From positions 53,382,001 through 53,446,000 of the forward strand of contig CM060731.1 in assembly GCA_030704615.1 (NCBI GenBank): DNA of 64,000 bases, written 5' to 3'. Both the position numbers and the translations under genes were made by a program. Position 1 is the first letter of the stretch; the number at the start of each line of letters is the position of its first letter. This DNA is from Takakia lepidozioides. Taxonomy: Eukaryota > Plantae > Bryophyta. The notes below the pieces were generated by a model that was given only the letters and a program-made list of their open reading frames with translations, made no database searches and was not told the DNA's origin. Shown here piece after piece: positions 8,467 through 63,158 of the stretch.

Positions 8467-9002
8467 CAGTCGACCTTGGATAAATGTTATCTGCTTTTTT
8501 GTTATGTTATCCTTAATGTTATGAAATCTTGGCTCTGTAAAAATTTACACTTGAAAACAAAAACATAACATAAACATAATGGTTTTGAAAACATAATAGT
8601 TTTGAAAATAGATATTACCTCAACAATTTCTTTTGACCTCCCTCAAAATCTATTGTTGAGGTAATTTAAGAAAAAAAAGAACAGAATAGTTTTGAAAATA
8701 GATATTATCTCAACAATTATTTTTGACCTCCCTCAAAAACTATTGTTGATGTAGTTTTCTTTTCTAAGAAAATATAATGGTTTTGAAAATAGATATTACC
8801 TCAACAATTATTTTTGACCTCCCTCAAAAACTATTGTTGAGGTAGTTTTTTTTTTTTTTTAAACATAATGGTTTTGAAAATAGATATTACCTCGATATAA
8901 TTTTCTCTTAAAAAAAACATAATGTTTGATATGTGAAAAAATTTAGCAGATATGTTATAATTTTTCTGCTCTATAGGCATAACAATTATCTAAGTTCGAC
9001 TG
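8467..9002. mobile_element. Tc1/mariner(pogo)-type MITE
   Basis: TA on both sides. TIRs cagtcgaccttggataaatgttat and (reverse complement) cagtcgaacttagataattgttat match at 21/24. AT-rich interior with three palindromic units. Confidence 0.8.
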
Positions 9003-9924: not shown

Positions 9925-10327
9925 ATAGCACAAAACCTTAAAAATGCACCGTGTCTCTATATCCGCCAATGGTTTTATTGGGTTTAGAAAACATATAACT
10001 CTTGTGACCGTGATTTAAAAGCATAAAACTCCCGTGACCGTGGGTTGTGCTCACGTTCTACCCCCCCGCAGTAGAGATGATGTTATGAAGAGTAGGACAT
10101 TGTTGAGTTAGCAAATTGCTTATCGGCGCACAAAGGATTCTGCAAATCAGACTGCAACGGAAAATATGGCAACGTGGTAGTTGGTCAGCTATATGACAGA
10201 AGTCAACGCTTATAAGGCATATTTGATTTCCATATCCATGGGAACGATGCTCAAACCAAGATCACTAAATATAAGCTACTAAGTTTGTGTGAGTGCATTT
10301 GCAATAGGGAGAGATTTCTACTAACCT

Positions 10328-10682
10328 TGTCAGGTTAAATAAGCACAGTGTGAAAACAGCTAGAATAAAACCAGTTATTTGTATTTAACACTTGGATTTA
10401 GGTCAAGTGTTAAATCAGGTGTCAAGTTTAGTTTGACACCTGGTCCGTCTTATCTTCACGAGAGCGGCAGTCGCGCAGCTCATCTCTCTCGAGTTGAGCC
10501 TGCGCGACCGAGCTCCTTCATGCATTTAGATTTGAGTGTGCTTATGATGGGAGTGTAGGTTGTTGTGGGGTGGAGTCCCCATAGCTTGGGGTGCCCCTGG
10601 CTCGACTTCTGTTTTAAAGAGTGATAGCGATGGATTCATGTTGTTTCTGGTGTGAGCAGTGTGTTTTCTAGTTTTCTTATCA
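10328..10682 (+). repeat. Terminal repeat A1 (355 bp)
   Basis: Matches 21780-22134 with 3 transitions seen by eye (10372, 10464, 10524); bounded by TG...CA. Confidence 0.95.
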
Positions 10683-10695
10683 CTCGAGAGAGATG
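10682..10695 (+). promoter_or_regulatory. Candidate self-priming primer-binding site
   Basis: actcgagagagatg is the exact reverse complement of catctctctcgagt at 10481-10494 inside repeat A. No TGG-type tRNA PBS follows A1. Confidence 0.7.
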
Positions 10696-11107
10696 CTCTC
10701 TTACCTGTGAGTGCAAGGTAGGAGTTGAGTGTTAGCACTTGCAAGATTACTTGTGTGTAAGTAGTGCTTAGTTTGAGAAGCATATCATTGAATGTGACCA
10801 CAAGATTCAGCGTGCCCTGAAACGCCTGGAGGATGACGATGCTAGAGCCGTCACTGTTGTTGCAGTCGCTGAAGCTACCAAGTCACCAGAGGCTTTGGAG
10901 TACACAAGGCAAATCAAGGAGAAGATGAAAGCTGCGGAGTACATGGATCTGGATGGGAAGCAGACAACAAAATTCGGATAATGGAGGACGTGGAAGTAAA
11001 AAACTGGCAGCAGCCGATGAACACCAAGACAAACACGGCAGCTCGCATTCCAGGCACAAGAAGAATATAGGCGGAAGCAAGATGCACTGCGAAGGCGACA
11101 GGCACAA

Positions 11108-11500
11108 GTGGGTGGAAACGCTTTATCTTTGAGTGATCTCGAGTTCGTAGCATTCTTGACTGAGGAGGGTACGATTGCAGATTGCAGCAAACCTGACTCG
11201 AAGGCAAGTGTGTATGCCATTTTTTATGAGGAAAAGATTATATATTACGTTGGTGTCTCAAGACAGGCTTATCAGAGTATGAGGCTACGCTTTGCACGCA
11301 AGCCGCTACAATGCTGGTATGTGAAGGTGCAGAATGAGAACCGTCCAGCCGAGCTCTACTTGAAAGCATTCGAGACAAATGGATCTCTGAGAATGGTGCA
11401 GTTCCCAGCGGAAATGACAATGGGAAGTTGCAAAATATTTAGGAGAACCCACTGGATTGCAAACCTCTCATGAGAGAAGAAGAGAAGCTGAAGGTTGAAG
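11108..11500 (+). pseudogene. GIY-YIG endonuclease-like domain (AtGRXS16-N / cyanobacterial type), frameshifted, inside the retroelement
   Basis: SVYAIFYEEKIIYYVGVSRQAYQSMRLRFARKPLQCWYVKVQ..RP; after a frameshift near 11348 it continues SRALLESIRDKWISENGAVPSGND...*ENPLDCKPLMREEEK. Confidence 0.7.
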
Positions 11501-12222
11501 ATGCAGAGGACGTTGTTAAGAACAGGAAGAAGCGGGAGCGGCGATGTCTCGGTAGAGCAACCTGACGGTAGAGATGTGAAAGAGAATGTGGAGAAGTCGA
11601 CAGGTTGGGCACTGTCAGCTCAGGAAGAGACCATTCAGAGAGAGCTTGAGCGTGAAAGAAACAGGGCACAACCAAAGGAGCTGATGGCCATCTAAGTCTT
11701 TGATTTGGCAGCTTGCAGCTGCCTCATTGCAACATTGTTTATCCCTGAACAACCAGCCATATCTCTTCCCACCTCTTATATAGACATCAGAACTGTACAA
11801 TGGATGAGGGATGGACTCAAGAAGGGGTGCTCCACACATGGGAGGGAGCTGCTGGTCCTCTGCAGATATGCATCACCAGCCTAGCAGCAGTGGGAGCAAC
11901 AAGCAAGAGACTGACAAAGACATGCAAGCTAAGAATTGAAGGTGGGAGTTAGGAGCATGCTGCGTGCAGCATTTGCAGACTCAGGCAGCAGCTGAGAAGG
12001 AAGAGGCTCAAACCAATGTTGAGGGAGGCCCATCGAAGCAGTTTCAGGCACCTCAAGCACCAAGTCCTTCGTCACCAAGGGATTTTCCTTCTCTTTCTGT
12101 GCTTGAAGAAGTGAATGAGTCGGGTCAGCCCTTTCTAGCAGGGCAAGCATGCTTGGTGGGGAGTCTAGACGCGTCCAGGGAACTCGTCCAGGGTTGGTAC
12201 TAGTTTGTGCATGAACGTTTGG

Positions 12223-12310
12223 ATTGCTTTGCCAAAAGATAGCCTCCCCGGCCTTACTGTGAGCCGCTTTCAACTGTCCGTTATACCATTGTCCTTTTGC
12301 ACTCAGCGTT
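12223..12310 (-). pseudogene. Short fragment resembling the DUF1771 region of Smr-domain (CID7-like) proteins
   Basis: LSAKGQWYNGQLKAAHSKAGEAIFWQSN resembles the LSxKGQxHNxxMKAAHxKAxEAIYxQRN pattern as recalled; not searched. Confidence 0.4.
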
Positions 12311-12855
12311 CTCATTAAGTGAGGAGACGTCGTCTTCCTGGGCCGCCCATAGTTTTGGAGCTATCATGGTGTCTGCACGAGAACGATCTGTGTTGCTCAA
12401 GTTGAGCTGACAGGATTGCGGGAGACTGGCGGGCTGCGTTCGCCACAGAGACGACGGCTGCCAGGTGAATATGAACAATACCTAAGAGCCGCTGGTACCA
12501 ATTTAGAACTTTGGGCACATATACAGGAACAGGTAACCAGGGAACAGGGAACCAAGACAATAGAGTTTTCTTTGTATTTGTTTTGTCTTATTAAAAATAT
12601 TTAAAAAAAAAATGTTATGTTTAAAGGGCCTGGTTGGTCATATCTTTGTCAAATGGGCTCCGTTTGACTCAGTTTTTGAGGGGATAGCTGCAGAAAGGGG
12701 AAATCTACCTATCTAGATCTGGTTTCTGTTTTTTGGACTTTGCTAAAAATCTATGGAATTTTTAGAGTGTGAGTGTGCCATGAAAGATCCACAATCCTGT
12801 TTCTAGAACCTGTTCTGGTCTACATGAGAGATAAATCTGGGGATGTACTCCTTGT

Positions 12856-13605
12856 ATGGCTGGGGGAAATGAGAACGTGATTGAAGGGCAGGTCTCTTCT
12901 CTTAGCCTGTGCACCAAAGGGGACAAGATTTATGTTTCCCAAGGAACTCAGACTGATTTGAGTGGAGAACAGTTGGACGAGTTGATTGCATACTGGGAGT
13001 CAGGCATTAGTAGTGGACAACAAACTGCTGTAGTTGGCGTTGAGGGCCTCAATATCGCCTTGGACAGTCAGAACTTTGTTGGAGCCAGTAGTTCTGCAGC
13101 TGTAGGTGAAACACCAAAGTGGGTGAAAGCTAGGCTTGGAACACAGCCAAAGACAGCCCCGAGGACCAAGGTGTTCAGCCACAAGGCCGTGGTGTACTGG
13201 AGCAGAGGAGCAGGAGCTACACAAGTTTGTGCAATCAGACATGGTTGCAGCCGGATACGCTCTGCACAGGGCAACCACGAGCGGGGGTTCATCAGCAATG
13301 ACATATTTGTTGTGCGTGAAGGAGATGCAGTCATTCGCAATGAGGACACCCACAACCGTCTCAAAGCTTTCGAGTTGAGAGACTATCAGACCCTACCTTT
13401 GTTTTCTTTAGTATTCAGTGAGCGGGAGATAGGGGAGTATTGCTTTGTCTCTACCTGGCAGAAAGAGGAGGAGGGTTGGTTAGAGCGAGCTACTGTAGCT
13501 TGGGACAAGGTGAGTGGCAGGTTTCTGGACATAGATATACCTCCTACACGTTACCATCATGCAGAGCGAGGCACTTTGAGAGAAGTCTGGCAGTTGATAG
13601 CATAG
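12856..13605 (+). CDS. Intact 249-aa hypothetical ORF in the retrotransposon leader, upstream of gag
   Basis: ATG to TAG, uninterrupted, non-repetitive globular-like composition; no recognised motif. Confidence 0.55.
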   Translation: MAGGNENVIEGQVSSLSLCTKGDKIYVSQGTQTDLSGEQLDELIAYWESGISSGQQTAVVGVEGLNIALDSQNFVGASSSAAVGETPKWVKARLGTQPKTAPRTKVFSHKAVVYWSRGAGATQVCAIRHGCSRIRSAQGNHERGFISNDIFVVREGDAVIRNEDTHNRLKAFELRDYQTLPLFSLVFSEREIGEYCFVSTWQKEEEGWLERATVAWDKVSGRFLDIDIPPTRYHHAERGTLREVWQLIA

Positions 13606-14306
13606 ATCAGGATTAGATCTTGCTTGGTTGGGCTTCTATTCTTCCCCTCCATCTCTGTACTATTTTCATTACCATGTACTTGTAGTTGCCAAAGCCTCTC
13701 TTGGTGGAGGCCAGTCAGTCCGGGGTTTTGGGCTGGGCTATTCTGCAGGATCAGCATTGCAGCTGGATTTTGGTGTGGGGGTGTTGATGTTTTGATTTCT
13801 TGTGTTTGGATCCCCCCCAACACCTGCATGCTTGACTGTGCGCCATGTTGGTTTTGTGTGGGCGCTTGCTTTCATAGGGATTAGGCCGGATTTGATCACC
13901 GGTCAATCCTAGAGTATGCTGTCGGTGGTGAGGCTGGAGTGATGACCAGCAAGACCACCAGTGTTTCTTCTATGGTGAGGCTGGGTTGATGACCAGCCAA
14001 CCATAGGAGTTCTTGCGGTGGATGCAGGTGCAGGTGCCCTGAGCCATTGGGATATGACCCTTAAACTGCAACAGGTGCCCACCCGTGTCACTATTAGATT
14101 AGTACTAGAGCCTTATAGTGTCACGTGGAGGAGGTGCACATTGTGAGTGTCATTACGGAGTTACCCAAGGGTTTTGAGGGGAGTACGGCTACAGGCAGTA
14201 ACAGTGAGAGTGGGTTCACAAGACGAGGTATTCGGTTCAGACCACCTTCACCGCCACCCTCAATTCTGTAGAGTCAGACACAGACTCAGAGGCTTCATCA
14301 ACAGGT

Positions 14307-16345
14307 GTGCACTTTCATTCGCCATTGTTGTGGGACGACATGGAGGAGATGTATGGAGCTACCAAGGGGCCTCGTAGGTACTCTGGAGCTGTGGGCACAA
14401 TTGAGTTGGATGACTTTATCCAGGAGTTTGACAGCTGGTGTGATTTGCAGCAGATGCGCAATCCACAGCTATTCACCCCATTCATGGCGTGGAAGGGACT
14501 GTTCCAGCATTTGGAAGGCCCGCCTATGGACGATTACCACGAGTTCAGGCGAGGACATGAAGCAGAGATTGAGGAGTGGAGATGTATTGGTCACCTGACT
14601 ACGTCTCCATTACTCGAGGCACGACGCGACCAGTAGCTGCATCAGTACCAATAGCTCCCACTGCCAGCACTAGTAGTGGAGCAAGTAGTGCTGGTACTTC
14701 TGCAGGTGGTACCAGTTCAAAAGGTGCTACTACTCCTCCTGCCACGACTACAACACATGTGCCTAGATTCAACCCGGTGGTGGAGTTCTTCCAGGAGTTG
14801 CGGAGGAACTACCAAGGTGTACGGACAGAGAAGCTGCGAAGTTTGCAAGACTTCCAGCGCAAACCCAGTGAGAGCCTGCGAGAGGCGTACACTCGTATGA
14901 GGCGCTTGATAAGTGTGACCCAAGGGGTTACTGAAGCTCAGGCAATCCAGTTTTGGTATGGAATTCTGGACAAGGAGCTCAAGAGAAGGGTGCGAGATGC
15001 AACCCTGTTACAAGCAGCCCAACCCACATTAGCAGATGTGTTTCTGCTGGCTGAGCGGATTGAGCTCAACATGGTGGAGGAGCGAGTTGTTACAATTGGA
15101 TTTGGCAAGGACATGCCTGTACGGGGCACAGCTGTCAGCCCACAGGCACAAGGGACTGCCCAACAGCGTGGTCAGGGGGGCAAGGTTGCCCAGCCCAAGT
15201 TCCATGGAGCTTACAGGGGACCTCAGGTGCAGAGGCCCGTGGCATCTTTTGCAGGCCAACAGCAACCAGGGGTGATATGTTGGACATGTGGAGGACCCCA
15301 TGTCAAAAGAGATTGCCCAGAGAATGGCAGAAGGCCGGCACAAGCACAGCCTGCACAGTTGCAGTGTGGGCATTGTGGCAAGTATGGGCATGGAGATGCC
15401 CAGTGTTATGACTTGCATCCTGAGTTGCGCCCAGGCCAGTTCCAAGGGAACAATGGTGGCCGGGGGCGAGGTGGACCAGCCCAAAGGAGGTGGTCGGGCA
15501 CGAGGTGCAGGCCAAGGGCAAGCTCCACATGGCCAAGGACGCGGAGGTCAGGGTGTTGACCAAGGCATGGCCAATCGGCTTCAGCAGCTAGAGCAGAGGC
15601 TCGCTGCCATGGCTATAGCTCAGGCGGTACCGGCTCCCAGGCGGGATGGTCCACCTCCTGCTCCTGAGGGAGGAGATATGGGAGGCATGGGATTCATGTG
15701 CGGAGCAGCACTACCACTAGAGCAGGTGGAGTCTGCTGCAGCCGTGACTCGAGGAGCAGCACGAGTTCCTGAGCCACGAGGTGCAGAGGTGGAGTTGGAT
15801 CCACAACGTGGGGAGGCAAGCCGTCAAGCGAGGCTGCCTCAGTCATTCACCTTGGCGGAGACAGTGTCAACGCCATCCATGGCACCTAGTTCTCGCCCGA
15901 CTGTTACCGAGGCGGAGGTTTCTATGCCATTGGGGAGAGCTACACGTGCAGCACTGCACCTGCTGCCAAGGCTAGTGCAGCCGGTGTGTTGTTGGGGGCA
16001 GCCACCTCTGTGTGTCAAGCCCCATTGTTCTCGGCAACCATGATTGCAACGCCGGGAGTGAGACCAGCTGCAGTGTTCAGACTAGCAGCAACACTCTGTG
16101 AGAGTGGAGAGGTCACTTCATCTTCTGCGGAGTTAGTGGAAGGTGTAGTGGCAGAGGGATCCTCAGATTTGAGGGTCAAGACTGCCACGGCAGCGCCCTG
16201 GCAAGCTGCAGCTGCCAAATTGACGGAGCTGCCAGCTAGGCCAGCCTTTGAGCGCGCCACGGTGACACCTGGAGTTGTCTTGTTAGACAACCAGGGAGAC
16301 ATTTTCACTTTGAGTGGACCGGCAGGCAAGAAGTACTGGCCACTG
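14307..16345 (+). pseudogene. gag: Retrotransposon Gag with two zinc knuckles and Gag-PR linker (frameshifted)
   Basis: Capsid-like LQDFQRKPSESLREAYTRMRRL..FWYGILD; knuckles CWTCGGPHVKRDC and CGHCGKYGHGDAQC. Frameshifts near 14580, 15490 and 15980. Confidence 0.85.
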
Positions 16346-16645
16346 CGGGTCTTGTTGGACTCATGAGCTCAGCCACTGATGTTGGGCAGAGCTGCTATTG
16401 CAGGTTTGGGCCTCATGGAGGCGGATATGGAGCCTTGTCCTTTCCAGATACAGACATCTCTGGGAGGATCAGAGCAGGCTCGGGGCATGACACGGCATCA
16501 GTTGGCCATTAGACTGCAGCCGGATCATCCTATCGATGGCTCAGTAATGCGAGCCAAGGCCATTGTGACAGACGCAGTCTCTTACGATGTCCTCGTTGGT
16601 GGGGCAGTGTTATACCCCATGGGCTTCACCCTGGACTTTTGGGAG
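16346..16645 (+). pseudogene. Retroviral-type aspartic protease
   Basis: RVLLDS*AQPLMLG, where TGA at 16364 replaces the Gly of DSG, through to YDVLVGGAVLYPMGFTLDF. Confidence 0.85.
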
Positions 16646-17068
16646 GAGTCAGCATCCTACAGGCCTGGATGGCAGTCAGGCGATGGTCGCCGTGCACAGC
16701 TCCCTGTGACATTCATTGGGGGTATAGCGGCTGCCCAGCGGGGCAAGATGCCAACACTAGCCGCCTTTACAGCTGCAGTTAGTTGGCCTGGAGAGTTGCT
16801 GGAAGGCAATGCCCATGCAGAGGATGTGCCACCTCCAGCAGAGCAGGATGACATGCATGGTATGGCGGAGTTGCCTGCCATGGTTGCTCACACTCCATTG
16901 TGGGGTACGAGCAAGGATTTGCAGCAGGTTGCTGATCGACGGGTGCAACAAGCCTGGGTAGAGGCTTTTGTTCCGTCAGGAGAGGAGGAGAGTGCGGGTA
17001 TTGCACCAGGACCACCTCAGTTGTCACCATTGGATACCACACCTATTGTGTGGCAGTATCCGGATGAA

Positions 17069-18020
17069 GGCATTTGCCTTCTGGACTTGTTTGGCGGGAT
17101 CAGCACCGGATTGGCTGCTGTGCTACAGGCAGGTGTACGAGTTCGACGTTACCTGTATGTGGAGAAGGATGAGACTGCACGACGCGTCTCACTGCGCCAT
17201 GTTGCTCGGATGCTGCAGCAGTACCCTGAGTTGTTGCCGGTGTCTGCAGTTCGTGGATATCAGCAGGCCTTGCCAGCAGACATTGCGTTGCTGGGGGCAC
17301 AGGATTTGGAGCGGGTTGGCTCCATTGATCTGGTAGTGGCAGGTTGGCCCTGCCAAGGGCATTCATCAGCCGGGCATGGCAATGGATTGCTAGACTCGAG
17401 GACGGGTTGTTTTGGGAGATGGTGCGGATTTTGCGCCACTTGCAGCTTCATCAAGCTGTATCTCCGGCATACATCTTGGAGAATGTGCCACTGATGGGTG
17501 ATTCTCGGGCCAGGGTGATGGCCAGTGTGCATCAAGTCTGGTCGTGGCTTGGGTCAGCAGTGTTGCTGGATGCAGCTGCAGTGGGGTCACGGGCTCATCG
17601 TCCACGACTATGGTGGACTAACTTGATGCCACCCGCACTGCTCAAGCGTGCATTTGATGGGGTGCAGCGGCCAGCACACCTCACCGTGGATGGCATTTTG
17701 GACACAGGAAGGCAGTCTCAACGTGTGAGACACGATGACCGTTCGCCTTTGGCAGTGGTCAACAGGGTGGGTCAACCACGAGCAGCATTACCTACACTGC
17801 TCAGCTTCCCAGGATCCCATGCTTTTCGGGATGGTGGACCTGGCCTCCTGTGGGATGCTCAGTTGCAACAGTTAGTGGAGCCTAATGCCGACAAGCGAGA
17901 GCGGGCTATGGGGTTTTCCACTGGGACCACGGCGGTGCCTTCTCTTTCTGAGGCATCACGTCGTCAGGTGTTGGGGCAAGCAATGGATCTCAATTGCTTG
18001 ACCTGGATTATCAGCTTGGC
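17069..18020 (+). pseudogene. C5 cytosine DNA methyltransferase domain (DNMT3-like) within Pol
   Basis: Motif I LDLFGGISTG, II YVEKD, IV DLVVAGWPCQ (Cys codon 17351), VI YILENV (17479), VIII AHRPRLWWTNL, IX RERAMGF, X RRQVLGQAM. One frameshift near 17405. Confidence 0.93.
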
Positions 18021-18432: not shown

Positions 18433-19430
18433 ATGCGGCGGTTCCTGAGGGCTTACAGGAATTGCTTTGCCTTCAGTTTGAAGGACTTGGGAGCACTGAA
18501 GGGTCAAGAGATTCGCATTGAATTGGCTACTGACACGCCAATCTTTCGGAGACCCTATAGATACAGTGACATGGAGAGGTCCTTGATTCAGATGAGAACT
18601 CAGGATCTTGGGAGGCAGGTTTGGTGGAGCTCTCTGGTGGAGAGTATGCTTCAGCCACAGTGATGCCAGCCAAGAAGGATGTCTATGGCAATTGGACGGA
18701 GAGACGTATGTGCGGTGATTACCGGCCTGTAAATCGTCAGACCAAGTCCGATAGGTATGCCATGCCGACACCAGAGGAGATCTTTGATGCCATTGGGCAT
18801 TCCAAGGTCTTTAGCACGTTGGATTTACGATCCGGATATCACCAGTTGCCGATCAAGGAGGCGGATAAGCAAAAGACGGCATTCTGGGGGATCAATGAGC
18901 ACGGGAAGGATTGCCTATACCAGTGGCGGTTCTTACCATTTGGGCTTAAAAACGCTCCCGCTGAGTTTCAAAGAGTCATGGACAGGATTCTAGCAGGGGT
19001 GGAGTTTGCTCGGTGCTACATAGATGACATCATCATCTTTAGTGCTACGGTGGAGGAGCATGAGAGACACCTTCAGGGGTATTTGAGCGCTTGAGGACGC
19101 ACGGATTGAAGTTACATCCGGGCAAGTGCAAGTTTTTCCACAACCAGATTGAGTATCTGGGTCACATGATATATCCTGGAGGATTGGGGGTACAGCAGAC
19201 TAAGGTAGAGTCCATTGCACAGGTTCCACGCCCCACGGATGTGAGCCGAGTTCGAGCTTTCATGGGGTTAGCAAACTATTATAGACGGTTTGTTAAGGGA
19301 TTTAGTGCCATTGCAAAGGCTCTAACCAAGCTGACCAAGGTGGACCAGGAGTGGCAGTGGGAAGATGAGCAAGAACAAGCTTTTCAAGAGCTCAAGGCGA
19401 GGTTGACCTCGGCGCCCATCTTGAGACGAC
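18433..19430 (+). pseudogene. pol: Reverse transcriptase (Ty3/Gypsy type)
   Basis: RMCGDYRPVN, FSTLDLRSGYHQ, LPFGLKNAP, YIDDI, IEYLGH, FMGLANYYRRF. Frameshifts near 18620 and 19085. Confidence 0.95.
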
Positions 19431-19439
19431 CTATCAGGG

Positions 19440-19815
19440 GCGTCCTTTTCAGCTGCATACAGATTGGAGCATGCTGGGGCTTGGAGCGGTGCTCACACAG
19501 GTGGATGATGAGGGGAGAGAGTTCGTAGTGGCTTATGCTAGCCGCTCGAACAATGCTGCAGAGTCTAAGTATAGCTCATATGAGGGAGAATGCTTAGCTG
19601 CAGTGTGGGCCGTGGCACACTTCAGGTGCTATCTATACGGCAATCTCTTCACCCTTGTCACGGATCACCAACCACTCAAGTGGTTGATGGAGTCAGACAA
19701 GCTTACGGGGAAGCTTGCACGGTGGGCACTCATCCTTCAAGAGTATGACTTTCAGGTGGTGCATCGACCGGGTTTGGTCAATCGCAATGCAGATGGGTTG
19801 AGTCGCAATCCATGC
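19440..19815 (+). pseudogene. RNase H
   Basis: HTDWSMLGLGAVL, YSSYEGECLAAVWAV, TDHQPL, NADGLSR. Confidence 0.92.
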
Positions 19816-20024
19816 ACGAGCCAGCAGGATGACACTGGAGCTCGGTGGCATGGTGAGACGGACGAGGAGATGGTGCCCGGATGGCATGCATCTGCATTTC
19901 TGTGTATCTTGGCAGCGGAAGGCCAGGTTGGACCTGCAACAGGGATGACTGTAGATCAAGTGTCTGAGGACCTGAGGCCAGCAATGAGCAAGGTGGCGCC
20001 AAAGATATACATGAGGATTCAGTT

Positions 20025-21260
20025 GTGTTGGACTACCTCCGCACTGGAGACACTGCAGCCACTGTGATTGCCAAGGAGAGGGATCGGATCCTACAACGAG
20101 CCAAGAGGTTCAAGTGGGAGGGGACACACCTGCTCCGAGTGTGGGAGGATGGTCGAGTGAGGATTGTGCCTCACCCAACACAGCGGGCACGGTTAGTGCG
20201 GCATGCCCATGAGGAGTTGGGGCATTTTGGGGTGCGACGCACTCATAGTCTACTGCAGGGGCAGTATTGGTGGCGTGGTATGCACACAGAGGTGCAACAA
20301 TTTGTGGCTAGGTGCATGGTGTGTGACAGGGTGCGTGCTTCATTCAACGCCCCTACTCCACAATTGCACCCTCTTCCGATCATGGGATTGGGCTACAGGT
20401 GGAGTCTTGACTTCGCAGGGCCGTTGCCACTGACCATGCGCCACAACAAGTACGTGTTGGTGATGGTGGAGCACTTCTCCAAGTGGATTGAATTGGTTCC
20501 ATTGCCTGATAAGGCTAGTGAGGGAGCTGCGTATGCATTCCTGGATTGTGTGCTTAGCCGATTCGGTGCTCCAGCTGAAGTACTCACGGACCAAGGGAGA
20601 GAGTTCTTGGGGGAGTTTCAGGCTTTGTGTAACAAGGCCTTGATAGACCACCGCACCACTTCTCGGGATCATCCTGAGGCCGATGGCTTGGCAGAGAGAG
20701 TTGTTCAGACAGTAAAGAGGGGTTTGCGCAAGTATGGCTTGCAGAAGGGACACCTAGGAGATTGGGACCTTCAGTTACCCTGGTTAGCCATGGGCTACAG
20801 GTTCAGCAAGCAAGCATCACTTGCCTTCTTTTCACCATACTTTCTTCTCTTTGGCCGAGAGCCGGATTTGCCTACATCCATTCGCAGAGAAGCTGCTACA
20901 ATTCTTCACCTTGACGATCCGGACGTGTGGGCACGTGCATATGAGCAGCATGCAGAGTTGTTCAAGAGAGTCATGCCCATGGCCTTCGAGAACCTTGCCA
21001 TTGCACAACACCGTGATACGTTGAGGTATGCTACCATACGTGGTGGGGGCTATCGTCCTGGGGTTCGGAGATTCAACCCTGGTGACTATGTCTATCTGCA
21101 GCAGACTGCTCCTACGACCCTGGATGTGACTGCAGGACGTGTTATTTTGAGGGTTCGAGAGGTCTTGCCCTCAGGCGTCTTGGTCTTGGAGGGTCGGGAT
21201 GGCATAACTTGGAAGGACCATGTGCGTAATTGTGCGCCATGTCACCTTCCGAATGTCAAA
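20025..21260 (+). CDS. DDE integrase with HHCC zinc-binding domain
   Basis: HEELGHFG...CMVC, WSLDFAGP, TDQGREF, DGLAERVVQ, SPYFLLFG. Confidence 0.92.
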
Positions 21261-21288
21261 CCTGGCAGTGGTATCTGCAGGTTTGAGG

Positions 21289-21432
21289 TGCATGTTGTGT
21301 GGGTCTGCTAAAGGGGCAGCCACCATGCTGGTGTGCGATCGATGCTCTAGAGGTTGGCATATGGGATGCTTGACTCCACCTCTTGAGATGGTTCCAGATG
21401 AGGATTGGTTATGTCCACATTGCATTGGATAG
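21289..21432 (+). CDS. PHD finger (C4HC3) at the integrase C-terminus
   Basis: CMLCGSAKGAATMLVCDRCSRGWHMGCLTPPLEMVPDEDWLCPHC; offset from INT by a frameshift near 21258. Confidence 0.9.
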   Translation, partial: CMLCGSAKGAATMLVCDRCSRGWHMGCLTPPLEMVPDEDWLCPHCIG

Positions 21433-21681: not shown

Positions 21682-21691
21682 AGGGGGGCGA
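21682..21691 (+). promoter_or_regulatory. Polypurine tract
   Basis: aggggggcga lies directly before the TG of repeat B1. Confidence 0.8.
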
Positions 21692-21692
21692 T

Positions 21693-21777
21693 TGTGGCAG
21701 ACTACTTTATTGTGCATATATGTGTGGTGTGGTTTGGACAGCGATGTAGTTGTGTAGCGATATGTATGCGCACGACA
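21693..21777 (+). repeat. Terminal repeat B1 (85 bp)
   Basis: Identical by eye to 22136-22220; bounded by TG...CA. Confidence 0.95.
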
Positions 21778-21779
21778 GC

Positions 21780-22134
21780 TGTCAGGTTAAATAAGCACAG
21801 TGTGAAAACAGCTAGAATAAAACTAGTTATTTGTATTTAACACTTGGATTTAGGTCAAGTGTTAAATCAGGTGTCAAGTTTAGTTTGACACCTGGTCCGT
21901 CTTATCTTCACGAGAACGGCAGTCGCGCAGCTCATCTCTCTCGAGTTGAGCCTGCGCGACCGAGCTCCTTCATGCGTTTAGATTTGAGTGTGCTTATGAT
22001 GGGAGTGTAGGTTGTTGTGGGGTGGAGTCCCCATAGCTTGGGGTGCCCCTGGCTCGACTTCTGTTTTAAAGAGTGATAGCGATGGATTCATGTTGTTTCT
22101 GGTGTGAGCAGTGTGTTTTCTAGTTTTCTTATCA
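21780..22134 (+). repeat. Terminal repeat A2 (355 bp)
   Basis: Copy of 10328-10682. Confidence 0.95.
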
Positions 22135-22135
22135 T

Positions 22136-22220
22136 TGTGGCAGACTACTTTATTGTGCATATATGTGTGGTGTGGTTTGGACAGCGATGTAGTTGTGTAG
22201 CGATATGTATGCGCACGACA
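22136..22220 (+). repeat. Terminal repeat B2 (85 bp)
   Basis: Copy of 21693-21777; followed by the TSD ACCT. Confidence 0.95.
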
Positions 22221-22676
22221 ACCTGTTATTAGTCCTGATTCTTTACGGAGGTTCGCATGCAACAGCCGGAACTGGGATTTAGAGTGAAGGACGTAACCTT
22301 GGTGTCTATGCCCCTCAAAACACCTATATATATATATATAACGCCAGCCGCAACTAGCGTAACTAAGAGCCTCTTCCCCTTGTGGATACTGCCCTTTTCA
22401 AGGGTGGGCTCTAAGAGAATTCAATAAAATGGATTGTGAAGTGTGGATGATGATTTATTGGTGGGATAGCTGTGATAGGTGCGATAGTTGTGATAGGGAG
22501 GCCATGAATAAGTAGAATATCTAGGCAGAGTCTTACCAGGCAGCAACAAGGATGGCTTAAGCATATGCAGAGTAATAACCACGTGGATATAGTCTTGTCT
22601 GGCGGTTGTCCTTGAAATGTGCCCGCATTAATGAGGTTGAACCATCTGGATTTAGGGTTTGATAGAAGTAATTTAA

Positions 22677-23717: not shown

Positions 23718-24390
23718 TTAAGAAGCTATCTAACTCCTTGGTTATGTCAAAACACACACACATCATCATTGTGAAACTGCAACAACAAAAACAAGGAGAC
23801 TATGACCTAAGAATATAGTTGGTGGTGGAAAAGGGCAGTACAAAGATGGATGGATGGCCTCTTCATGGCTTCTAGTCGATCAATGAATTCGATACATGGA
23901 AATTTAGTATAGCATGCATTGAGTCAATAGCAAAGATTCCAAAGTCGGAACGTGGATTCCCAAGACATGCCAGTTCGCAGTGTTTGATTCTACGAATGCA
24001 GGCTGTCTCCAACCGAAACTATGCGATATCCATGTTATGATTCTCTACATATTCCAGAGAAAGGGCTAACGGATGACCATGGTATTGGAAGAAGGTTGGT
24101 TGGTGTGGTCTCTTTTAGTTACCGCTAGGCTTCCCAGACCCAAACGGAAAAGAAAGGAAATCACGGTAACTAGCATGAGATTTCGAAGTATGGTCTTCGT
24201 TAGTAAACGGTATATTTCGCGAGGGAGAGAGGCAAAACCATGGTGAGAGGGTTTAAGGCTCCTGCACAGATCCTGTGGAGCATTCCGTCCTCGTCTTGCT
24301 CTGCGCATTTCTTCTCGTGATCCCGCACCTGTGCATTTCTGCACTCACTTCACAATTAAACTGTTATGGGGACTGCTGGGGGTGGCCCAC

Positions 24391-27300
24391 ATGGTGGCCC
24401 CTGCAGGGCGCCCCATTGCGGCCACCCCTGGATGCGTGAGTAATGTGCGATTAGTTTCTCCTTTGCATCCCTCTCTTCTCCTATTTAATACCAGAGTGTC
24501 GACCATCTCTTCTTCTTTCAGTAAGAAATCGCATTCTTCTACTCCCAGATATGTTTCCTTGTTTCAACCGACACATAAGATAATCGTCTATGGTTCCAGT
24601 TATCGCGAAGCAGGATACTGTTGCAGCCGGGGGAGTCACTTATTCAGAAGCAAACCACGAAAGCACATTTCTATCTCGGTGGAAAAAAAGGAAACGACGC
24701 CTATTAGCTGTGACATGGCTTCGATCGTGGAGGCCGGAGGTATCAACTGTGCGGGGGTAAATGTCCCGGCGTGGAGTCGTGTTTCTTCAGAGAACGCATT
24801 CATGAGGACTAAGTTCAGCAAAGTTGGTGGATTATTGCATTCGGTTTCTTTCCTCGCAGTGTCAGCACGTATCAAAGGCTACAGCAGTATCAACCAAGTT
24901 TCATGTTCTCCTCGGAGGGGTTCATGTAGATTGAATTGGAGTCGAGATGATGCTCAATGGCGTATATCGGTGTATGGAAGCTCTTTCTTCACGGTACGTC
25001 TATCATAACCTTGCCATTGAAGTCTTTGATTTTCCTGTCGTCAAATTCTTTCAGGGCTGTAAGTGATTGTTGTCCTTCACCTCACTTGGTGCTTGCGGAT
25101 GATGGAGATGCTTCAGACATTGAGAAAAATTTTACTCACACCAATTTGCCTCAGCTAAAGAAACGGAAATTGCGTGTTTGCCTGCAGGGGGGAGGGATTT
25201 GGGTAATGGGGTGGTAAGGCTGGTTGGGGAGGAAGGTAAGTCTGGTGTGGTTAAAGATCCTGACGTAGATTTCTATCGGGGCTGGCGCCTGCAGTGAAAT
25301 GAGGGACACATGAGACGCACAGATCCACAATTGAGGGACGCAAGAGTTGTTTACAGCCAAGTTGTGAGTAAATGCTGATGGGTGGGCAACTGCAGGTGGC
25401 AGGTGAAAGCAAGGAGTATGGGACCACTCCAGCACCCGGAAAGCTGAGACGAAAAGGGCGCCGGAGAGAAGTGAAGAAGAGAAACCTTCCATCCCCACAA
25501 GGAGCAGGTAAGGTGGAAGGGACGAGACAGGCAGTAGTTGTAGTTGAGTCACCAGCAAAAGCAAAAACTATCGAAAAGTATCTCGGCACGGGCTTTACTG
25601 TACTGGCGAGCTATGGCCATGTGCGTGATTTAGCTGCACGTGCGGGCTCAGTTCGGCCAGATGATGACTTCACCATGCTCTGGGAGGTGCCTACCTCAGC
25701 CCGTCCACACATCAATGCCATCAAGGCTGCACTCAAAGGGTTTGTTTCCCTTCTCTGGGCTTCACAATGCTGTCCGGTGAAGTTGGCAGGGGGAATGGAT
25801 GGGCAGCTTTTATTCATTAAATTTCACAGCTCCATAAATACTCTCAGCCTGCGCCATGTCTGTAACAGACCTTGGAGGATTTCTTCATGGAGCAGTACTC
25901 CACAAGTGTCAACACTGTGACACTGTGACGCGCAGGCTGGAATTAGTCATGGAGAAATGTAGCTGTGCACCCTCTGAGTACTCGGTAGACTTTGCTGTAG
26001 CCTTTGTGGCCTAATGCTTAGTCTGGATGGAAGCACAGAAGGGGGGGAGGAAGAGAGTATCCCTCAAAGCTGTCGACTCTGCCATATGACCATGATATGG
26101 AGTCGTCAATGTGAAGGACATTGGATTTAGGTCCCTCCTTTGCTCCTTTTTCCTAATTTTTGTTGCACATTTTGCTCTGTTCTGTCTTTTCTTGGGGCTT
26201 CATTGAAGGAAGAGTCTCTCATTTCACTGTTATCCAGGAACCTTTGAAATTTAAGTCTGGACTTTACTCAGCACTTATATGGATATACATCTTTTGACTT
26301 TATGTTGTGTCAGGGCAGAGACGTTGGTTTTGGCCTCTGATCCAGATAGGGAAGGAGAGGCCATTGCATGGCACATGCTGGAGATGTTGACAATTGAGGG
26401 GGTTTTGAAGAAGGGAATGAAAGTGAAGAGGGTGGTTTTCAATGAAATCACAAAGACAGCAGTGCTTAGGGCCATGGAAGCACCCAGAGATGTAAGCGGT
26501 ACACTTGTGAATGCCTATCTTGCTCGGAGGGCGCTTGATTACCTTATTGGATTTGACCTCTCACCAGTTCTGTGGCGCAAGCTGCCGGGGAGCAAGTCTG
26601 CTGGGCGAGTTCAATCAGCTGCTCTCCGTCTTATTTGTGAACGTGAACAAGAGATGGAGGTGTTCTGTGCTCAAGAGTACTGGAGTGTAGAGGCACAACT
26701 GGAAAAAAGTTTATCCAGCAGCACTGGCACCAGAGTATTTGGTGCCAGATTAACGCACTATGGTGGTGAGAAGCTGGGCCAGTTTTCACTTTCTTGTGCT
26801 CTGGAAGCAGAGGCAGCTGCAAAGGCAGTGGCAGATGCTAGGCTGCATGTGGCTAGTGTGAAGAAGAGCCTGATGCGCCGCTCTCCACCACCTCCGTACA
26901 TCACGTCTACTCTGCAACAGGATGCCTCTACCAAGCTGGCCTTTGGGGCCACTCGCACCATGACTGTATGTTTATCACTACATATGGATGGAGGTTTGGA
27001 GGTTAGGAGAGAGAACAGGAATGGGCGGGAAAGTGTAATCTTCTTTCATGTTGGTTTTATGATATTGCTTTCAAACATCGTAAGTCGTAAAACCAACATG
27101 AAAGATGACTACATTTCCCGCCCATTCCTGGTCTCTCTCCTAACACAGTCCAATTGTGGGTAGCAGATTATGAACTTCTGAACTTTGCTTGACCATGAAA
27201 TCTTCAGGCTGATGATTCTGTTCAATTTGAAACTTATTCATACTGCTGCCAAAGTTGAACCAGGATATTCGAATACTTGTTTCTGCTTGACAGTCTCTGT

Positions 27301-30300
27301 GTCTTTGATCTTTTGATTGCCCAACTGTGTTTGAAGAGTTGCTGCTGTGTTCATTGCTACCTCAGATATTACTTTGGGCATGCACCATCTGTGCCTCGTG
27401 AAGCAGATCTCTATATGCTACCTTACAAAATAACATACAGTTGTTTTGGGTCATCATTCACTCACGGCTTATATGCGTCTTTAATTTCTAAGCCAGGACA
27501 TGTTTTGGGACATGAAAGACCTGGGGCGTGGAGGGTGGAGACAGGTGGCTCAGCAACTGTATGAGGGGGTGAAGCTTGCCAATGGTGAGCAGACAGGCCT
27601 CATTACATACATGCGCACGGATGGGGTTCAGGTGTGTTGACATTGATGTCATACTATGTACTAGATGTCATTTTGAGCATTTGACACGTGGCTGTGCAAG
27701 AGAAAGAGAGAGAGAGAGAGAGAATCATGAGACATTGTTTGCCATAACCTTGTGGCATAGACCCTGCGTCCACAGAGAACGTACTCATAAGACGTTGTTT
27801 GCGGCCATTGACCCCGCGAAAGCTACCTTTGTCAGGGGCTGACCCCGGTAGTATGACTCACCTTGGAACAGACAATGGATCTGAGTTTTCCAGATATCCT
27901 CTAGAAAACCCTTCACACAATCAGAAAACCCTTCCCTTTACGCAAGCATTAATCTGCTCTGTGTGACTTGCCCAATAATGAGGCCCCAAAAGGGCCTGGA
28001 CTTTTGGCTCAGCCTCAAGATTTCAAAGTTGGTAAACAGAGGTACAGGCACAAATCCCTTGATGGATTTGATGAGGGCATCTCTCTGGTGAGAGTATCCA
28101 GGACAATGAATCAGAAAATGAATATTGTCTTCAGGTTGCCCACATTATGGGCATTTGCAATTCTCCTTTCCTTTCTGCATCTGTTTGCTGTTCAAAGGTA
28201 GGCTTCCCGCCCTGAGTTTCAATTTCAGTCTAGTGCCGGAGTGGGTAAACCCTTGAGGTCATCCTGATGTCCTCCCCCATGTCAGAGACTGGAAACAAGT
28301 TCAGGGAAGTTTTCTGCCTAACTTCATTCGCATCCACAGAGAGAGAGATTGGTCCTGTGTGTTGGGTCACATTTGTTATGCAACGGCTGTAAATGTCAGT
28401 TCTGTTTTTTGCTCTTTTTGGCTGAAACATCTTTGAAGCTTTTGAGATGCAGATGTCAGTTGCATGCTGGTCCAAAGTTGGTTACTGAAGGAAAGGATTG
28501 AGGCATGACATTGGGTGTGGGTGAGTGTGGTACTAGCTATCCGAGGAGGCCGTTGACAGCATCCGAGCTTTGGCCGCATCAAGGTAGGATTTTGACCTTG
28601 GATCCACCAGAGGGCCTGTTGTTTAGCTTCTTGGTTTGAATTTTGCTCATTTCTGTTAATGAGTCGTATTTCTCTTCAAAGTTCAGAGTTGTAGCACTGA
28701 GCTACAGGCTTGGGATGAGCATATAGATTACTTACCACCACTTATATACATATATAGAGATTGTACTCTTAAGATGTTGTTTGCCGTAGCCTTGTGGCCA
28801 TATACATATATAGAGAGAATGTACTTAATAAGATGTTTGCTTGTGGCCCCTGCGCTCATATATATGTATATATATATATTTGTAGATGTACAGAGGTAAT
28901 GTGCTCATAAGACGTTGTTTGCCTTAGCTTTGTGGCCATTGACCCCGCACCCAGTTTGAGCGGAACACAAGGGACAGAAACTACCTTTGTCAGGGGCTGA
29001 CCCTGGTAGTATGACTTAACCTTGAAACAGACGATTGATCCGAGTTTTCTAGATATCCTCTAGAAAACCCTTCACACAAACATCAATCTGCTGTGTTTGA
29101 TGTGCCCAATAACTAGACCCCAAAAGGGCCAGGGCTTCTCGAGATTTTCAAAGTTGGTAAACAGCGGTACAGGAACAATTCCCTTGATGGTTTTGAAGAG
29201 GGTGTCTCTCTGGTGAGGGTACCCAGGACAAAGAATCAGAAAGTGGATATTGTCTTCAGGTTGCCTGTACACGGGCATTTGCAATCCCTCTTTCCTCTCT
29301 GCATCTGTTTGCTGTTCAAAGGTAGGCTTCCTGCCCTGACTTTAAATTTCAGTCTAGTGCCGAGGGTGGGTAAACCCTTGAGGTCATCCATGATGGCCTC
29401 TCCCATGTCAGACTGGAAACAAGTTCAGGGAAGTTTTCTTCCTAAATTCATGTTCATCAGACATTTTCCTGGCAACAGACATGGCTTTGGACACTACAGC
29501 CTCTTAAGTCATATTTCTCCACCAGGGTCAAGACTTGCGGGCTTAGATTCAGATCCTCGAGAACCTCTTCTAATCTCTTCCGCCAGGACTTAGCCTGTTT
29601 GACAGGGCGATCCTGCTTCCAAGATATAGAGTCGATTAACTTAGGATATCTGATATTTGCAGCTGACCCCACCATCTGACCTTGAATTCATCTCGTTGGC
29701 AGCTCAAGGAAGGGATGCCAAACTCACCCCAAACAGCGACATTGGCTGTTTTGGAGCATGCCTTAAGCACCCCCACTTGAATGGATTCTAGAGGTTTGTG
29801 GAATGGTTTTTTCTTAACGTCAGAGTTGATCCCTCTTCAGTGGAAAATTTTAGTGAGCGTGTTACGCTTGCCAGATTGAACGACTTTTTGAATATGTGCA
29901 TCCCAATTACAGTTGGAGGAAATCTCAATGCCAAAGTATGTGTAGGAAGGGAGGACCGGAATCTCTTGGCTTCCCCACTGCCACTTGAGATCACCTCCTC
30001 CTTTCCCTCGGTCGTGGAATGCCACCACTGCGCATTTGCTGATGTTAGCCTGTAGCCCCCAAATGTCAAATTATCTCTTCGCGCAATCAATCAACTCCTG
30101 GAGATTGGAAGAAGTCTCCCCTATGCCTGTGAAGTCATCCGCAAACATGAGGGCTGGTGTGGTGGCACCCACCTTAGATTCCAGATCAAACTCGAGACGA
30201 TTACTTAAACTCTGCAAAATATCTTGCCAACTGATTTAGAAGGGTGATGTGTCGACAGTTCCTTGGCTCCTCTTTGGCATGCGAGAGAGAGAGAGAGAGA

Positions 30301-33300
30301 GAGAATGTACTCATTGGCCATTGACCCCGCGCCCAGTTTGAGCGGAACATAAAGGGACAGAAGCTACCTTTGTCAGGGGCTGACGCCGGTAGTATGATTT
30401 ACCTTGGAATAAACAGTTGATCCGAGATTTCCAGATATCCTCCAGAAATCCCTTCACACAAGCATCAATCTGATGTGTGTGATTTGCCCAATAGCTAGAC
30501 CCCAAAAGGGCCTGGGCTTTTGGCTCAGCCTCAAGATTTTCAAAGTTGTTAAACAGAGGTGCAGGCACAATTCCCTTGATGGAATTGAAGAGGGTGTCCT
30601 GTTGGTGAGAGTACCCAGGACAATGAATCAGGAAGTGAATATTGTCTTCAGGTTGCCCACACAACGGGCACTTACAATCCCCCTTTCCTCTCTGCGACTG
30701 TTTGTTGTTCAAAGGTAGGCTACCCGCCCTGAGTTTGAATTTCAGTCTAGTGCCGAGGGTGGGTAGACCCTTGAGGTTCAGGGAGGTTTTCTGCCTAACC
30801 TCATTTTCTTCAGACAATTTCCTGGCAATAGACATGGCTTTGGAAACTTCAGCTTCTAAGCCAGATTTACCAGCAGGGTCATGGCTAGTGGACTAAGATT
30901 CAGATCCTTGAAAATCTCTTCTACCCTCTTCCGCCAGGATTTAGCCTGTTTGACAGGGTGGTCCTGCTTCATATAGAGTCGATTAACTTAGGATATCTGG
31001 TATTAGCCATACGTTGCAGCTGACCCCACCATCTGATTGTGAATTCATTGCGTCGGGGGCTTAAGCGAGGAATGCCAATCCCACCCCGAACAGCCACATT
31101 AGCTGTTTTGGAGCATGCTGACATGCACTCCTTGAGCACCCCGACTTGAATGGATTCAAGAGACTTAGCCTGGTTGGAGTTATCAACCCATACAGCAGAT
31201 GCATACTCCAAGGCCGGCCTGATAATGCAGCAAAGCATGGTTTTTTTGACTTCAGAGTTGATCCCTCTGCAGTGGAAAAATTTAGTGAGACCTAGCGCTT
31301 TGCGTTTGCCAGATTGAACCACTCTTTGAATATGTGCTTCCCAATTACAGTTGGAGGGAAACTCAACGCCAAGATAGGTGTAGGAGGGGAGAACAGGGAT
31401 CTCTTGGCTTCCCCACTGCCACTTGAGGTCGCCTTCTCCTTCCCCCCGGTCGTTGAATGCCACCACTGCGCATTTACTGACATTGGCCTCTAGCCCCCAA
31501 AGATCAAAGTATCTCTTCGTGCAATCTATCAGCCCTGGTGGTTAGAAGGAGTCTCCCCTATGCCTGCGAAGTCATCCGCAAACATAAGGGCTGGTTTGAG
31601 CAGAAGAGAGAGAGAGAGCGAGATGTGGGAGCAATTGGAAGCACAAGATGATTGATGGCAGGAATGGCATCCACAGGTATGGTCAAGAGTATGTCCCAGT
31701 ACAGCGTCGGCAATTCAAATCCAGGGTGAAGAATGCACAGGAAGGTCACGAGGCTATCCGGCCTACTGACATTCACCGCCTGCCTTGTAAGTTTGTTATC
31801 CCAAAGCGCTTCCGCCATCTCGTTGTCCCTAAGTGATAGGTGAAAGTGCCTACCAATGAGCTTCTCATGATACTTTTGTTGCATTAATTATGCATATCTA
31901 TTATGTTAATGGCAACATTCCCATAAGTACCGAATCAACCCAGTAACGGGATTGTCGGTGGTTCTTGCGTGATTGCGTCCGGTTGTCGTAGGTACCAATA
32001 CAGAGGGTGGTGGATGGATGCAGCAACACTGACAGGGGTGCTGGAGGAAGATGCTTTGCGGCTCTACACCCTCATCTGGGCACGGACTATGGCAAGTCAG
32101 CTGGAGCAGGCCATACTCAACCAGGTCTGCTTTCCCCTCTCCCATTCTTTTCCGCCTCTACTTGTGTTATGAAGGCAGTTGGGAGTGATGGGCCATAGCA
32201 TTGGATGATTTGCAGGTGGCTGTTGATGTTGCGGATGATAATGAAAACGTACAGCTGCGCTCCAGTGGCTCTACTGTATCATTTTCTGGCTTCTTTTCTG
32301 CTTACAAGGTACCTGCATCCTTATGTTCTAGAGAATGGTTTTCTGTGAGGTTCAGAGGGAGGGAAGGAGGTGGAGAATATGAGGGCATCTGCGGAAGGAG
32401 GGGCTGAGGTTTCTCAGGTGTCAAAGTTTGAGAATCTGTCTCATCATTGAGAAGAGCAATGTATGTTGAACTCTTCAAGGCACATTACTCTTTGATGCCG
32501 GGGCAACTTGGAAGGACCGTTCCCATATCTCAGGCTTATTGAGTAGGTCTGCATTTGTAATAGGGTACCCCCTATTTCAGACTTAATTCAGTAGGTCTTT
32601 CATGTTTTTCAGTGGCAGTCTAAATTGGTCCTTCTCAACTCTCATCACTGACACATGGGTAAAAAATGCACATAATGAGTACACTAAGGGATAAATTATG
32701 GAATTCTTCTCATGCTCGAGCAGGACCCAGAAGTGTTGGGCATGAAAATGGATTTACATCAAGAAGATGCGAAAGGGGAGGATCGCGATACATTGCAATA
32801 TGTTGAGGTTAGTTCAGCCAATCCAAGATCTTCTCTGATTCTTTAGTCTTCTCATGTCAACAGTCAAAGTATGGTTCTTCATTGTACTACGTCATTTTTA
32901 GTCCCCAAAGATATTGGAGGTTTGCTCTCTTCCATCCTAATGTTGTTTTGGAAATGGCTCAATTCTTCGATTGTTTATGCAATCTCTTACCCTCTTCTCT
33001 GGGAGTAGATGTTTTGTATTCATCGTTTTTGTTTTGTAAGACAATAGTAGGCTTTGGACATAGGTGATTGTAACAGTACTGGGAGTGTTGTGGGAGGGAA
33101 GGCAGGGGATCTATTATCCTTGACCGAAGTTCGACCATCACAACATTTCACAGAGCCACCTCCTCGCTTCTCTGAAGGATCCTTGGTAATTTTACCCAGC
33201 CTTTGTACTTTGGCTTGATGACACAGAACCACCTGAATAGATTATACAGATTGGAGATTTCATCCTGCAACATTTTGCATTGTGGTGAAGACAGAACATG

Positions 33301-62763: not shown

Positions 62764-63158
62764 TTGCAGCCCTAAAAATGGAGGGCTTGGATGGGTTATG
62801 GGAATGGACAGTGGCGATCCTGCGCCGTCAGCGGACTGGATGGCAGGGGACTGGCCAATGGACTGGCAGGCAGACTGGCGGACTGGCAGACTGCTGGGCA
62901 CCGGACTGGCCAGCACCGGACTGGCGGGCAGACTGGCGGACTGGCAGACTGGAGGGCAGCAGACTCATGGGCGGGGGACTGGCCGCGCGGCGAACGGGGG
63001 CGCGGGCGCGGTTGCTGCAGCCGCGCCCGCGGCTGGGCGACCACGCGCAACGACGGGCGAGGCGGGCGGGGTGCTGGGGAGCCGGGCGTCCGTGCGCGGG
63101 GCCCACCGGCCACATCGCACGTGCCCATTGAAGACCCTATTATCTTAAAATGAGAGGC
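62764..63158 (-). repeat. Right TIR
   Basis: Reverse complement of 41188-41607 with small indels. Confidence 0.92.

Follow-up and report, generated by a model that had tools for sequence, protein, structure and literature searches.

Here, we propose that a retrotransposon in the window (by which we mean the whole 64-kb stretch of Takakia lepidozioides DNA that was analysed) belongs to a lineage that probably makes an ordinary LTR cDNA, has the ends of that cDNA joined to each other, and integrates through an attachment site lying inside its repeat, where a DDE integrase would use a palindrome. The proposal rests on sequence comparison. By its proteins, the element is a Ty3/gypsy retrotransposon and not a tyrosine-recombinase element. 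We draw a distinction between the repeat layout itself, which is real, lineage-wide and without a mechanistic explanation in the literature that we found, and which is already known from the figure legend that describes KnitGypsy-Dnmt3 and from Chlamydomonas library entries, and what is new here: the spread from chlorophytes to bryophytes, the conserved attachment word, the 4-bp target duplication, the self-priming signal, a second class of copies with the layout A...B, and a one-sided cut.

Repeat layout in the window and its relatives

The integrated unit is 11,893 bp long, with the end layout A...PPT-B-GC-A-B (PPT, polypurine tract) and ACCT on both sides (Table 1). A preliminary description of this DNA had read a left end of A only (355 bp), a right end of PPT-B1 (85 bp)-GC-A2-B2 and an ACCT duplication bracketing A1 through B2, and all of this agrees with our alignment base for base; relatives likewise have 4-bp duplications. 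A1 and A2 (355 bp each) differ at 3 positions (99.15% identity). B1 and B2 are the same, and their match extends to 87 of 87 bases (21691-21777 and 22134-22220) when the two preceding letters are counted, so that the single T taken as a spacer between A2 and B2 is the base that precedes B1. The A2/B2 joint is thus flush with one shared A, the end of A being joined to the first letters after the purine tract, which is how the preliminary description had understood it. The word GACAGCTGTC occurs once in the 64-kb window, at 21774, on the B1/A2 joint. No B stands before A1 and no further copies of A or B were found in the window. A 5-bp duplication, AACCT, was considered and rejected, as it would force an element end of GAC and relatives have 4 bp.

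Table 1. Features of the element, with positions in the window
Feature	Position	Strand	Basis or remark
Left 4-bp target duplication, ACCT	10324-10327	+	
Repeat A1, left terminus, TGTC start, contains predicted transcription start	10328-10682	+	
Predicted self-primer (would be the RNA 5' end)	10481-10494	+	reverse complement of 10682-10695
Predicted primer-binding site of self-priming type, no TGG start	10682-10695	+	
Long leader with cargo ORFs 11021-11470 and 12835-13602	10700-14200	+	no counterpart in 80 related loci
gag, zinc-knuckle-like motifs, two frames	14208-15556	+	PF03732, E 0.0014, below cut-off
Aspartic-protease-like region, approximate limits, stop codon inside	16250-16750	+	translation; relatives P0135 and P0136 have PF13650
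C5 cytosine methyltransferase domain in Pol, approximate limits, two frames	17070-18000	+	PF00145, E 2.9e-4, just below cut-off
Reverse transcriptase, two frames	18570-19525	+	PF00078, E 3e-22
RNase H	19369-20064	+	PF17917, E 8e-37
DDE integrase, HHCC zinc finger and core D148, D208, E243, one open frame	19968-21308	+	
PHD finger after integrase, different frame	21289-21429	+	PF00628, E 9e-12
Polypurine tract	21682-21691	+	relatives: G-run directly before B
Repeat B1, 85 bp, GACA end	21693-21777	+	
Palindrome GACA-GC-TGTC, putative head-to-head attachment-site pair	21774-21783	.	2-nt spacer in 25 of 25 relatives
Repeat A2	21780-22134	+	
A/B joint, putative junction of two cDNA ends	22134-22136	+	
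Repeat B2, right terminus, GACA end	22136-22220	+	
Right 4-bp target duplication, ACCT	22221-22224	+	

In public sequencing runs, the joint between B2 and its flank has a difference-free match in short contigs that contain only 24 bases of B (our bridging rule being 31 bases) and that come from one sample, which may be the source of the assembly. Contigs spanning the A/B joint, from a second study, also have 24 bases on their short side, below the bridging rule. Depth in the read contigs of these public runs is very high over both repeats, thousands of times above that of the flank, which suggests many copies, depth being no count of them. The contig unique to this locus begins only 24 bases inside B, and this fits, indirectly, with B being followed by many different flanks.

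Relatives were collected by searching metagenome contigs with an integrase profile. The best 80 of at least 294 confirmed loci were retained and seven duplicates were removed (L002, L011, L025, L040, L048, L071, and L078; L010 equals L011 by flank), leaving 73 distinct loci. Among these 73, drawn from the best 80 of at least 294, the right end reads PPT-B-A-B in 26 loci and PPT-B-flank in 24; another 22 are unscorable (short contig or no reference repeat) and L072 carries a deletion there. The scored loci of this same best-80 set form three families whose A and B sequences are unrelated from one family to the next. Tabulating the termini and duplications of other copies had been the first check recommended in the preliminary description and, run on relatives, it returned right ends of B-A-B or B: none of the scorable relatives from the best 80 of at least 294 has a canonical BA...BA end, and in none of the 26 B-A-B right ends is a second A followed by flank. 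At the left, 16 ends (the one in the window among them) have 600 or more upstream bases, and B precedes A in none of these. The A...B class, at 24 of 50 scorable right ends in the best 80 of at least 294, had been missed by the preliminary description; the class may include assembly collapse.

Sixteen copies are complete. An exact 4-bp target duplication flanks 10 of them; in another 3, one of the four bases is mismatched, and the last 3 (L015, L028, and L077) have none. Exact duplications occur in both classes (6 of 10 A...B-A-B copies and 4 of 6 A...B copies). Within copies, identity is 83-99% for pairs of A and 83-100% for pairs of B, A and B having aged alike.

Could the window element be a one-off, that is, an ordinary LTR element altered by auto-integration, nesting, local duplication, or mis-assembly? 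Its gag-pol is interrupted by several frameshifts and stops despite repeats that are 99-100% identical, a combination that could reflect assembly errors. Broken genes between near-identical repeats would mean either that this copy is young and its lineage was already defective, or that the assembly contains small errors. We consider the one-off reading very improbable and already largely refuted by the census, given that the layout is found in 26 distinct loci of three families (from the best 80 of at least 294), in Klebsormidium, and in Chlamydomonas library entries, that a canonical end was not found, and that 10 of 16 complete copies have 4-bp duplications.

Further afield, four distant loci (L007, L052, L058, and L060; 46-71% integrase identity) have CGACA-nn-TGTC downstream of the integrase or after a purine tract. 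In L060 (3737-9601) and L007 (8655-9317), B, palindrome, A and primer site lead into the leader or a 1499-aa ORF, with no B2. This arrangement may be a collapsed assembly, a tandem copy, or a one-repeat circle; we rejected the two loci as canonical ends or circles and treated them as collapsed or tandem assemblies. On the minus strand of the L032 contig (1356-1838), about 220 bases upstream of the L032 element, lies a B-A-B remnant of another family of the lineage. A search of metagenome contigs with a 21-base pattern taken from the B terminus gave no match, nor did one of viral contigs with the window integrase.

Elsewhere in the window, a type IA topoisomerase gene (Toprim, Topoisom_bac) lies in exon-like pieces at 24247-27560, about 2 kb downstream of the element, and is probably an ordinary host organellar gene. 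Partly duplicated fragments on the minus strand at 27800-31900 read like a reverse transcriptase that we take to be of the LINE family. There are tandem arrays at 262-710 (48-base unit), 1941-2516 (134), 5701-5880 (10), 8585-8893 (91), and 55970-56330 (100), and an inverted repeat of about 400 bases and about 90% identity (41188-41607 and 62764-63158) whose arms are 21 kb apart.

Coding content and known systems

The element has the Ty3/gypsy order of gag, protease, reverse transcriptase, RNase H, and integrase, with a methyltransferase inserted before the reverse transcriptase. Its reverse transcriptase is of the Ty3 type (best solved relatives 4ol8 and the Ty3-G Gag-Pol 7q5b), and its integrase combines an HHCC zinc finger with a D-D35-E catalytic triad. 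The TG...CA termini, a target duplication within 4-6 bp, and a PPT adjoining the 3' repeat are also those of Ty3/gypsy elements. What is missing is a pair of full, equal terminal LTRs, A standing alone at the left and B-A-B at the right. Tyrosine-recombinase families had no match in 76 of the 94 stop-to-stop pieces of at least 60 aa, the other 18 being plus-strand pieces in frames that overlap gag-pol; together with the DDE integrase, this bears out the preliminary description, which had seen no tyrosine recombinase. Residues at 16250-16750 form what we take to be an aspartic-protease motif. The nearest named relatives are liverwort proteins (75-84%), followed by those of Klebsormidium nitens, Sphagnum, and Haematococcus.

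Neither cargo ORF of the leader has a counterpart in the 80 related loci, and neither has a Pfam match; a PDB match was also sought for ORF 11021-11470, with none found. Presumably, this ORF resembles a GIY-YIG-like plant or cyanobacterial domain. It was considered as a nuclease acting on the palindrome and rejected on the grounds of its lack of a Pfam or PDB match and its absence from the 80 loci.

The methyltransferase domain (PF00145) is present in the precomputed annotation of most of 31 relatives. It stands before the reverse transcriptase in the window and the three scored families, and between RNase H and integrase in distant relatives (L038, L049, L052, and L059; P0145 and P0147), which would mean that the domain moved or was captured twice. 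In Marchantia polymorpha, a series of methylase-domain gene models (P0122-P0124, P0126, P0128-P0132, and P0137-P0139) match the window Pol at 57-71%, with P0122 additionally matching the window gag, and several of these models appear to be copies of this retrotransposon's Pol.

The preliminary description had held the split-repeat layout to be foreign to Gypsy elements. This is wrong: KnitGypsy-Dnmt3 of K. nitens is described as having a DIRS-type repeat structure with Gypsy domains (de Mendoza et al. 2018, PMC5890265, Fig. 4c legend), and the same paper defines DIRS repeats as A-coding-B-A-B. KnitGypsy-Dnmt3 resembles the window element in its Gypsy domains, in a cytosine methyltransferase within Pol, and in its repeats. 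The text on KnitGypsy-Dnmt3 in the accessible portion of PMC5890265 mentions neither a mechanism nor a mode of priming, and likewise neither a target duplication, a palindrome, a PHD finger, nor an A...B class. Three K. nitens integrase proteins (P0012, P0045, and P0092), which may differ from the published copies, match the window integrase at 50-56%, and two of them have a PHD finger; an integrase tree drawn without an outgroup places the window integrase with two K. nitens proteins (95/89). In the literature searched, the name KnitGypsy occurs in one paper only, and no published mechanism for a Gypsy element of A...B-A-B layout was found, most subscription journals, Repbase Reports, and theses lying outside the scope of that search.

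A second precedent comes from the Chlamydomonas repeat library v3.4 (supplement of PMC9940879), in which Gypsy-14a_cRei and Gypsy-14b_cRei are listed as LTR/Gypsy. Judged by eye, these entries are like the window element in starting with TGTC and ending with GACA, in having a purine tract-B-GC-A-B order around GACAGCTGTC, and in carrying integrase- and PHD-like coding sequence. Unlike it, they are short and rearranged, with a B of about 50 bp and, in 14b, a B2 without its start. Within the part of the supplement available to us, the Gypsy-14 name appears in FASTA headers only. Gypsy-7a_cRei, which has a PHD finger and is active in Chlamydomonas, was rejected as a living member of the lineage, as its LTR is of the ordinary kind and its internal part begins with TGG.

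Priming, joints and the proposed route

Just after A1 lies a sequence that is the exact 14-nt complement of a stretch within A1 (Table 1), equalled in none of 200 control stretches. In the predicted fold of the window leader, the duplex has an energy of -23.6 kcal/mol and 10 of its 14 pairs have P of at least 0.75. Comparable duplexes of 17, 15, and 16 nt are found in L003, L015, and L079 (0 of 200 controls each), and across the three families their offsets are similar, the letters on each side of the pairing being different. When mismatches were tolerated, 10 of 17 left ends scored above all 150 controls, the result being weak in the other 7, whose scores were reached by 1 to 47 of the 150 controls. 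Within A, upstream of the predicted RNA start, there are also two adjacent hairpin-forming inverted repeats (window 10383-10444, and 21835-21896), the second identified by eye.

Tf1, Tj1, and Tcn1 are described, in the portions of PMC4600332 and PMC6317226 available to us, as self-priming from a primer-binding site that complements the 5' repeat and not a tRNA. The predicted primer-binding site of the window element, like that of Tf1/Sushi and Tcn1, is complementary to part of the 5' repeat. The element itself differs from them in that they have two full terminal LTRs and mostly a chromodomain, whereas its ends are permuted and its integrase is followed by a PHD finger, with no chromodomain. 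The complement internal to A thus points to Tf1-like self-priming and hence to an ordinary BA...BA cDNA. Given a primer site that directly abuts A and a purine tract that directly abuts B, a linear BA...BA molecule would be the outcome of standard LTR reverse transcription, and its ends coincide with those proposed in the preliminary description (PPT-B and the end of A). In that case, RNA could not be the template of B2, which would have to be supplied anew, as DNA, with every cycle.

The two joints behave differently. At the B/A joint, all 25 copies have a spacer of 2 nt, the letters of which vary (AC in 10, GC in 7, AT in 3, GT in 2, and others in 3). The perfect palindrome of the preliminary description is present in the window, and its GC centre is shared by 7 of 25 relatives. 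Since the centre varies and the spacing is fixed, the arms and the spacing seem to matter more than a perfect palindrome. As had been proposed, the arms equal the integrated termini and, in relatives, are accompanied by the 4-bp duplication. At the A/B joint, 21 copies of the largest family were read by eye, and 10 have the commonest length while 11 depart from it; L016, L018, and L020 have a joint 2 nt shorter, a form that could be inherited. The second B of L079 starts about 137 bp upstream of the PPT and thus carries the PPT and upstream sequence, and the second A of L065 is reduced to 76 bp. Some joints are flush with an overlap of 1-2 nt (a shared A in the window; a shared AT in L020 and L079). 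A fixed B/A joint beside a variable A/B joint is what one would expect if the former were templated and the latter came from end joining; as the relatives are old (83-94% repeat identity), small changes at the A/B joint may be later decay.

These joints also bear on whether the element might replicate in the manner of split-repeat recombinase elements, with an RNA running from A1 through B2, an internal B/A joint that templates the ends, an inherited A/B joint, and a DDE integrase in place of the recombinase. The A-coding-B-A-B layout is shared with SymbioDIRS-Dnmt3, and the 10 of 21 A/B joints of equal length, together with the three sharing the 2-nt-shorter form, would suit such inheritance. 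We nevertheless think this route unlikely. A primer site flush with the end of A1 would set the 5' end of the minus strand at the end of A, leaving B2 uncopied from RNA, and the PPT flush with B1 puts the plus-strand start at B. Furthermore, the B2 of L079 includes the PPT and sequence upstream of it, and within copies the two B repeats resemble each other as closely as the two A repeats do. The available portions of PMC7192593 and PMC5890265 show PAT, Ngaro, VIPER, and SymbioDIRS to have the A...B-A-B repeats of the window element, with a circular donor proposed there; these elements encode a tyrosine recombinase, in place of which the window element has a DDE integrase, and it also differs from them in its protease region, PPT, and 4-bp duplication.

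How, then, might a cDNA of ordinary form give the observed unit? In the route that we favour, the RNA would start within A1, at about 10481, and would prime the minus strand at 10682-10695 with its own 5' end, as in Tf1, after which the PPT would prime the plus strand at the start of B to yield the linear BA...BA cDNA. Integrase would cut after CA on both strands of the left-repeat palindrome, producing a pair of processed ends whose 2-nt 5' overhang would disappear on insertion; the unit would consequently start with TGTC and end with GACA, without the centre, and with a short duplication like that made by any DDE integrase. Host end joining would likely connect the blunt cDNA ends (end of A and start of B), either ahead of strand transfer or shortly after it, and the donor would be a circle closed either by DNA or by the integrase complex. 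An A...B-A-B product could be copied again. A circle with one repeat, a second cut, or a loss between B1 and B2 might each give rise to the A...B form, which is predicted to be a dead end because it is missing the second A. Bacterial copy-out-paste-in insertion sequences use circle junctions, and the proposed route may be likened to theirs.

The integrated unit is best read, as the preliminary description had it, as a circular permutation of a BA...BA cDNA. Its further step, integration from a free two-LTR circle, fits less well: such a circle has two equal palindromes, from which the mirror product A-B-A...B would be expected as often as A...B-A-B, and the counts are 0 against 9 (two-sided binomial p 0.004). 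It would seem that the left palindrome is always used, so that either the cut is biased or cutting may precede joining; if cutting comes first, the integrase complex may hold the B stub. Our guess as to the choice of side is that the left repeat becomes double-stranded first.

The mirror count also weighs on another possibility, that reverse transcriptase, on reaching the end of the right repeat, jumps to where the left repeat starts, giving an over-length cDNA that integrase trims at the palindromes with no host end joining. Reverse transcriptases are capable of end-to-end jumping, and flush A/B joints with 1-2 nt of overlap (A in the window; AT in L020 and L079) are compatible with it. The jump would require displacing an existing plus strand, however, and it predicts both A-B-A...B and solo A-B inserts, of which there are none in the 80 loci (the best 80 of at least 294), a set selected by integrase and so a poor sample for solo A-B units. 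On balance, we hold the jump to be improbable.

Returning to the favoured route, its fullest form is a Ty3/gypsy clade extending from chlorophytes to bryophytes, in which a self-primed two-repeat cDNA would integrate obligately via the internal site and host end joining would seal the ends; judged from sequence, we rate this broader statement somewhat above even.

Significance of a possible circle-based route

It has long been debated whether LTR circles can be genuine integration precursors, with cell experiments on foamy virus and HIV-1 supplying the arguments. For both viruses, the integrase is reported to cut at the palindrome of the two-LTR circle junction (PMC1180852, PMC4372172, as far as the accessible parts of these papers go), and, as in the proposed route, a DDE integrase thereby cleaves a head-to-head attachment-site palindrome into processed ends. 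The two cases differ in that the viral palindrome lies where the cDNA ends meet and the viral provirus has the canonical form, whereas that of the window element would be templated inside the repeat and the unit is permuted. Here, an entire lineage appears to have recorded such a route in its genomic copies, together with a short conserved substrate, GACA-nn-TGTC.

There is also a consequence for annotation. Surveys that require two full LTRs (for example with LTR_FINDER, as in the available part of PMC6317226) would miss or mis-delimit this abundant methyltransferase-carrying element; the preliminary description had likewise expected LTR finders to mis-call its ends.

If the proposed route is true, the ends made by reverse transcription would be uncoupled from the ends used for integration, and the circle, usually a dead end, would be the normal route for a eukaryotic retroelement. 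This would in turn offer a simple path from an ordinary LTR element to one with split direct repeats.
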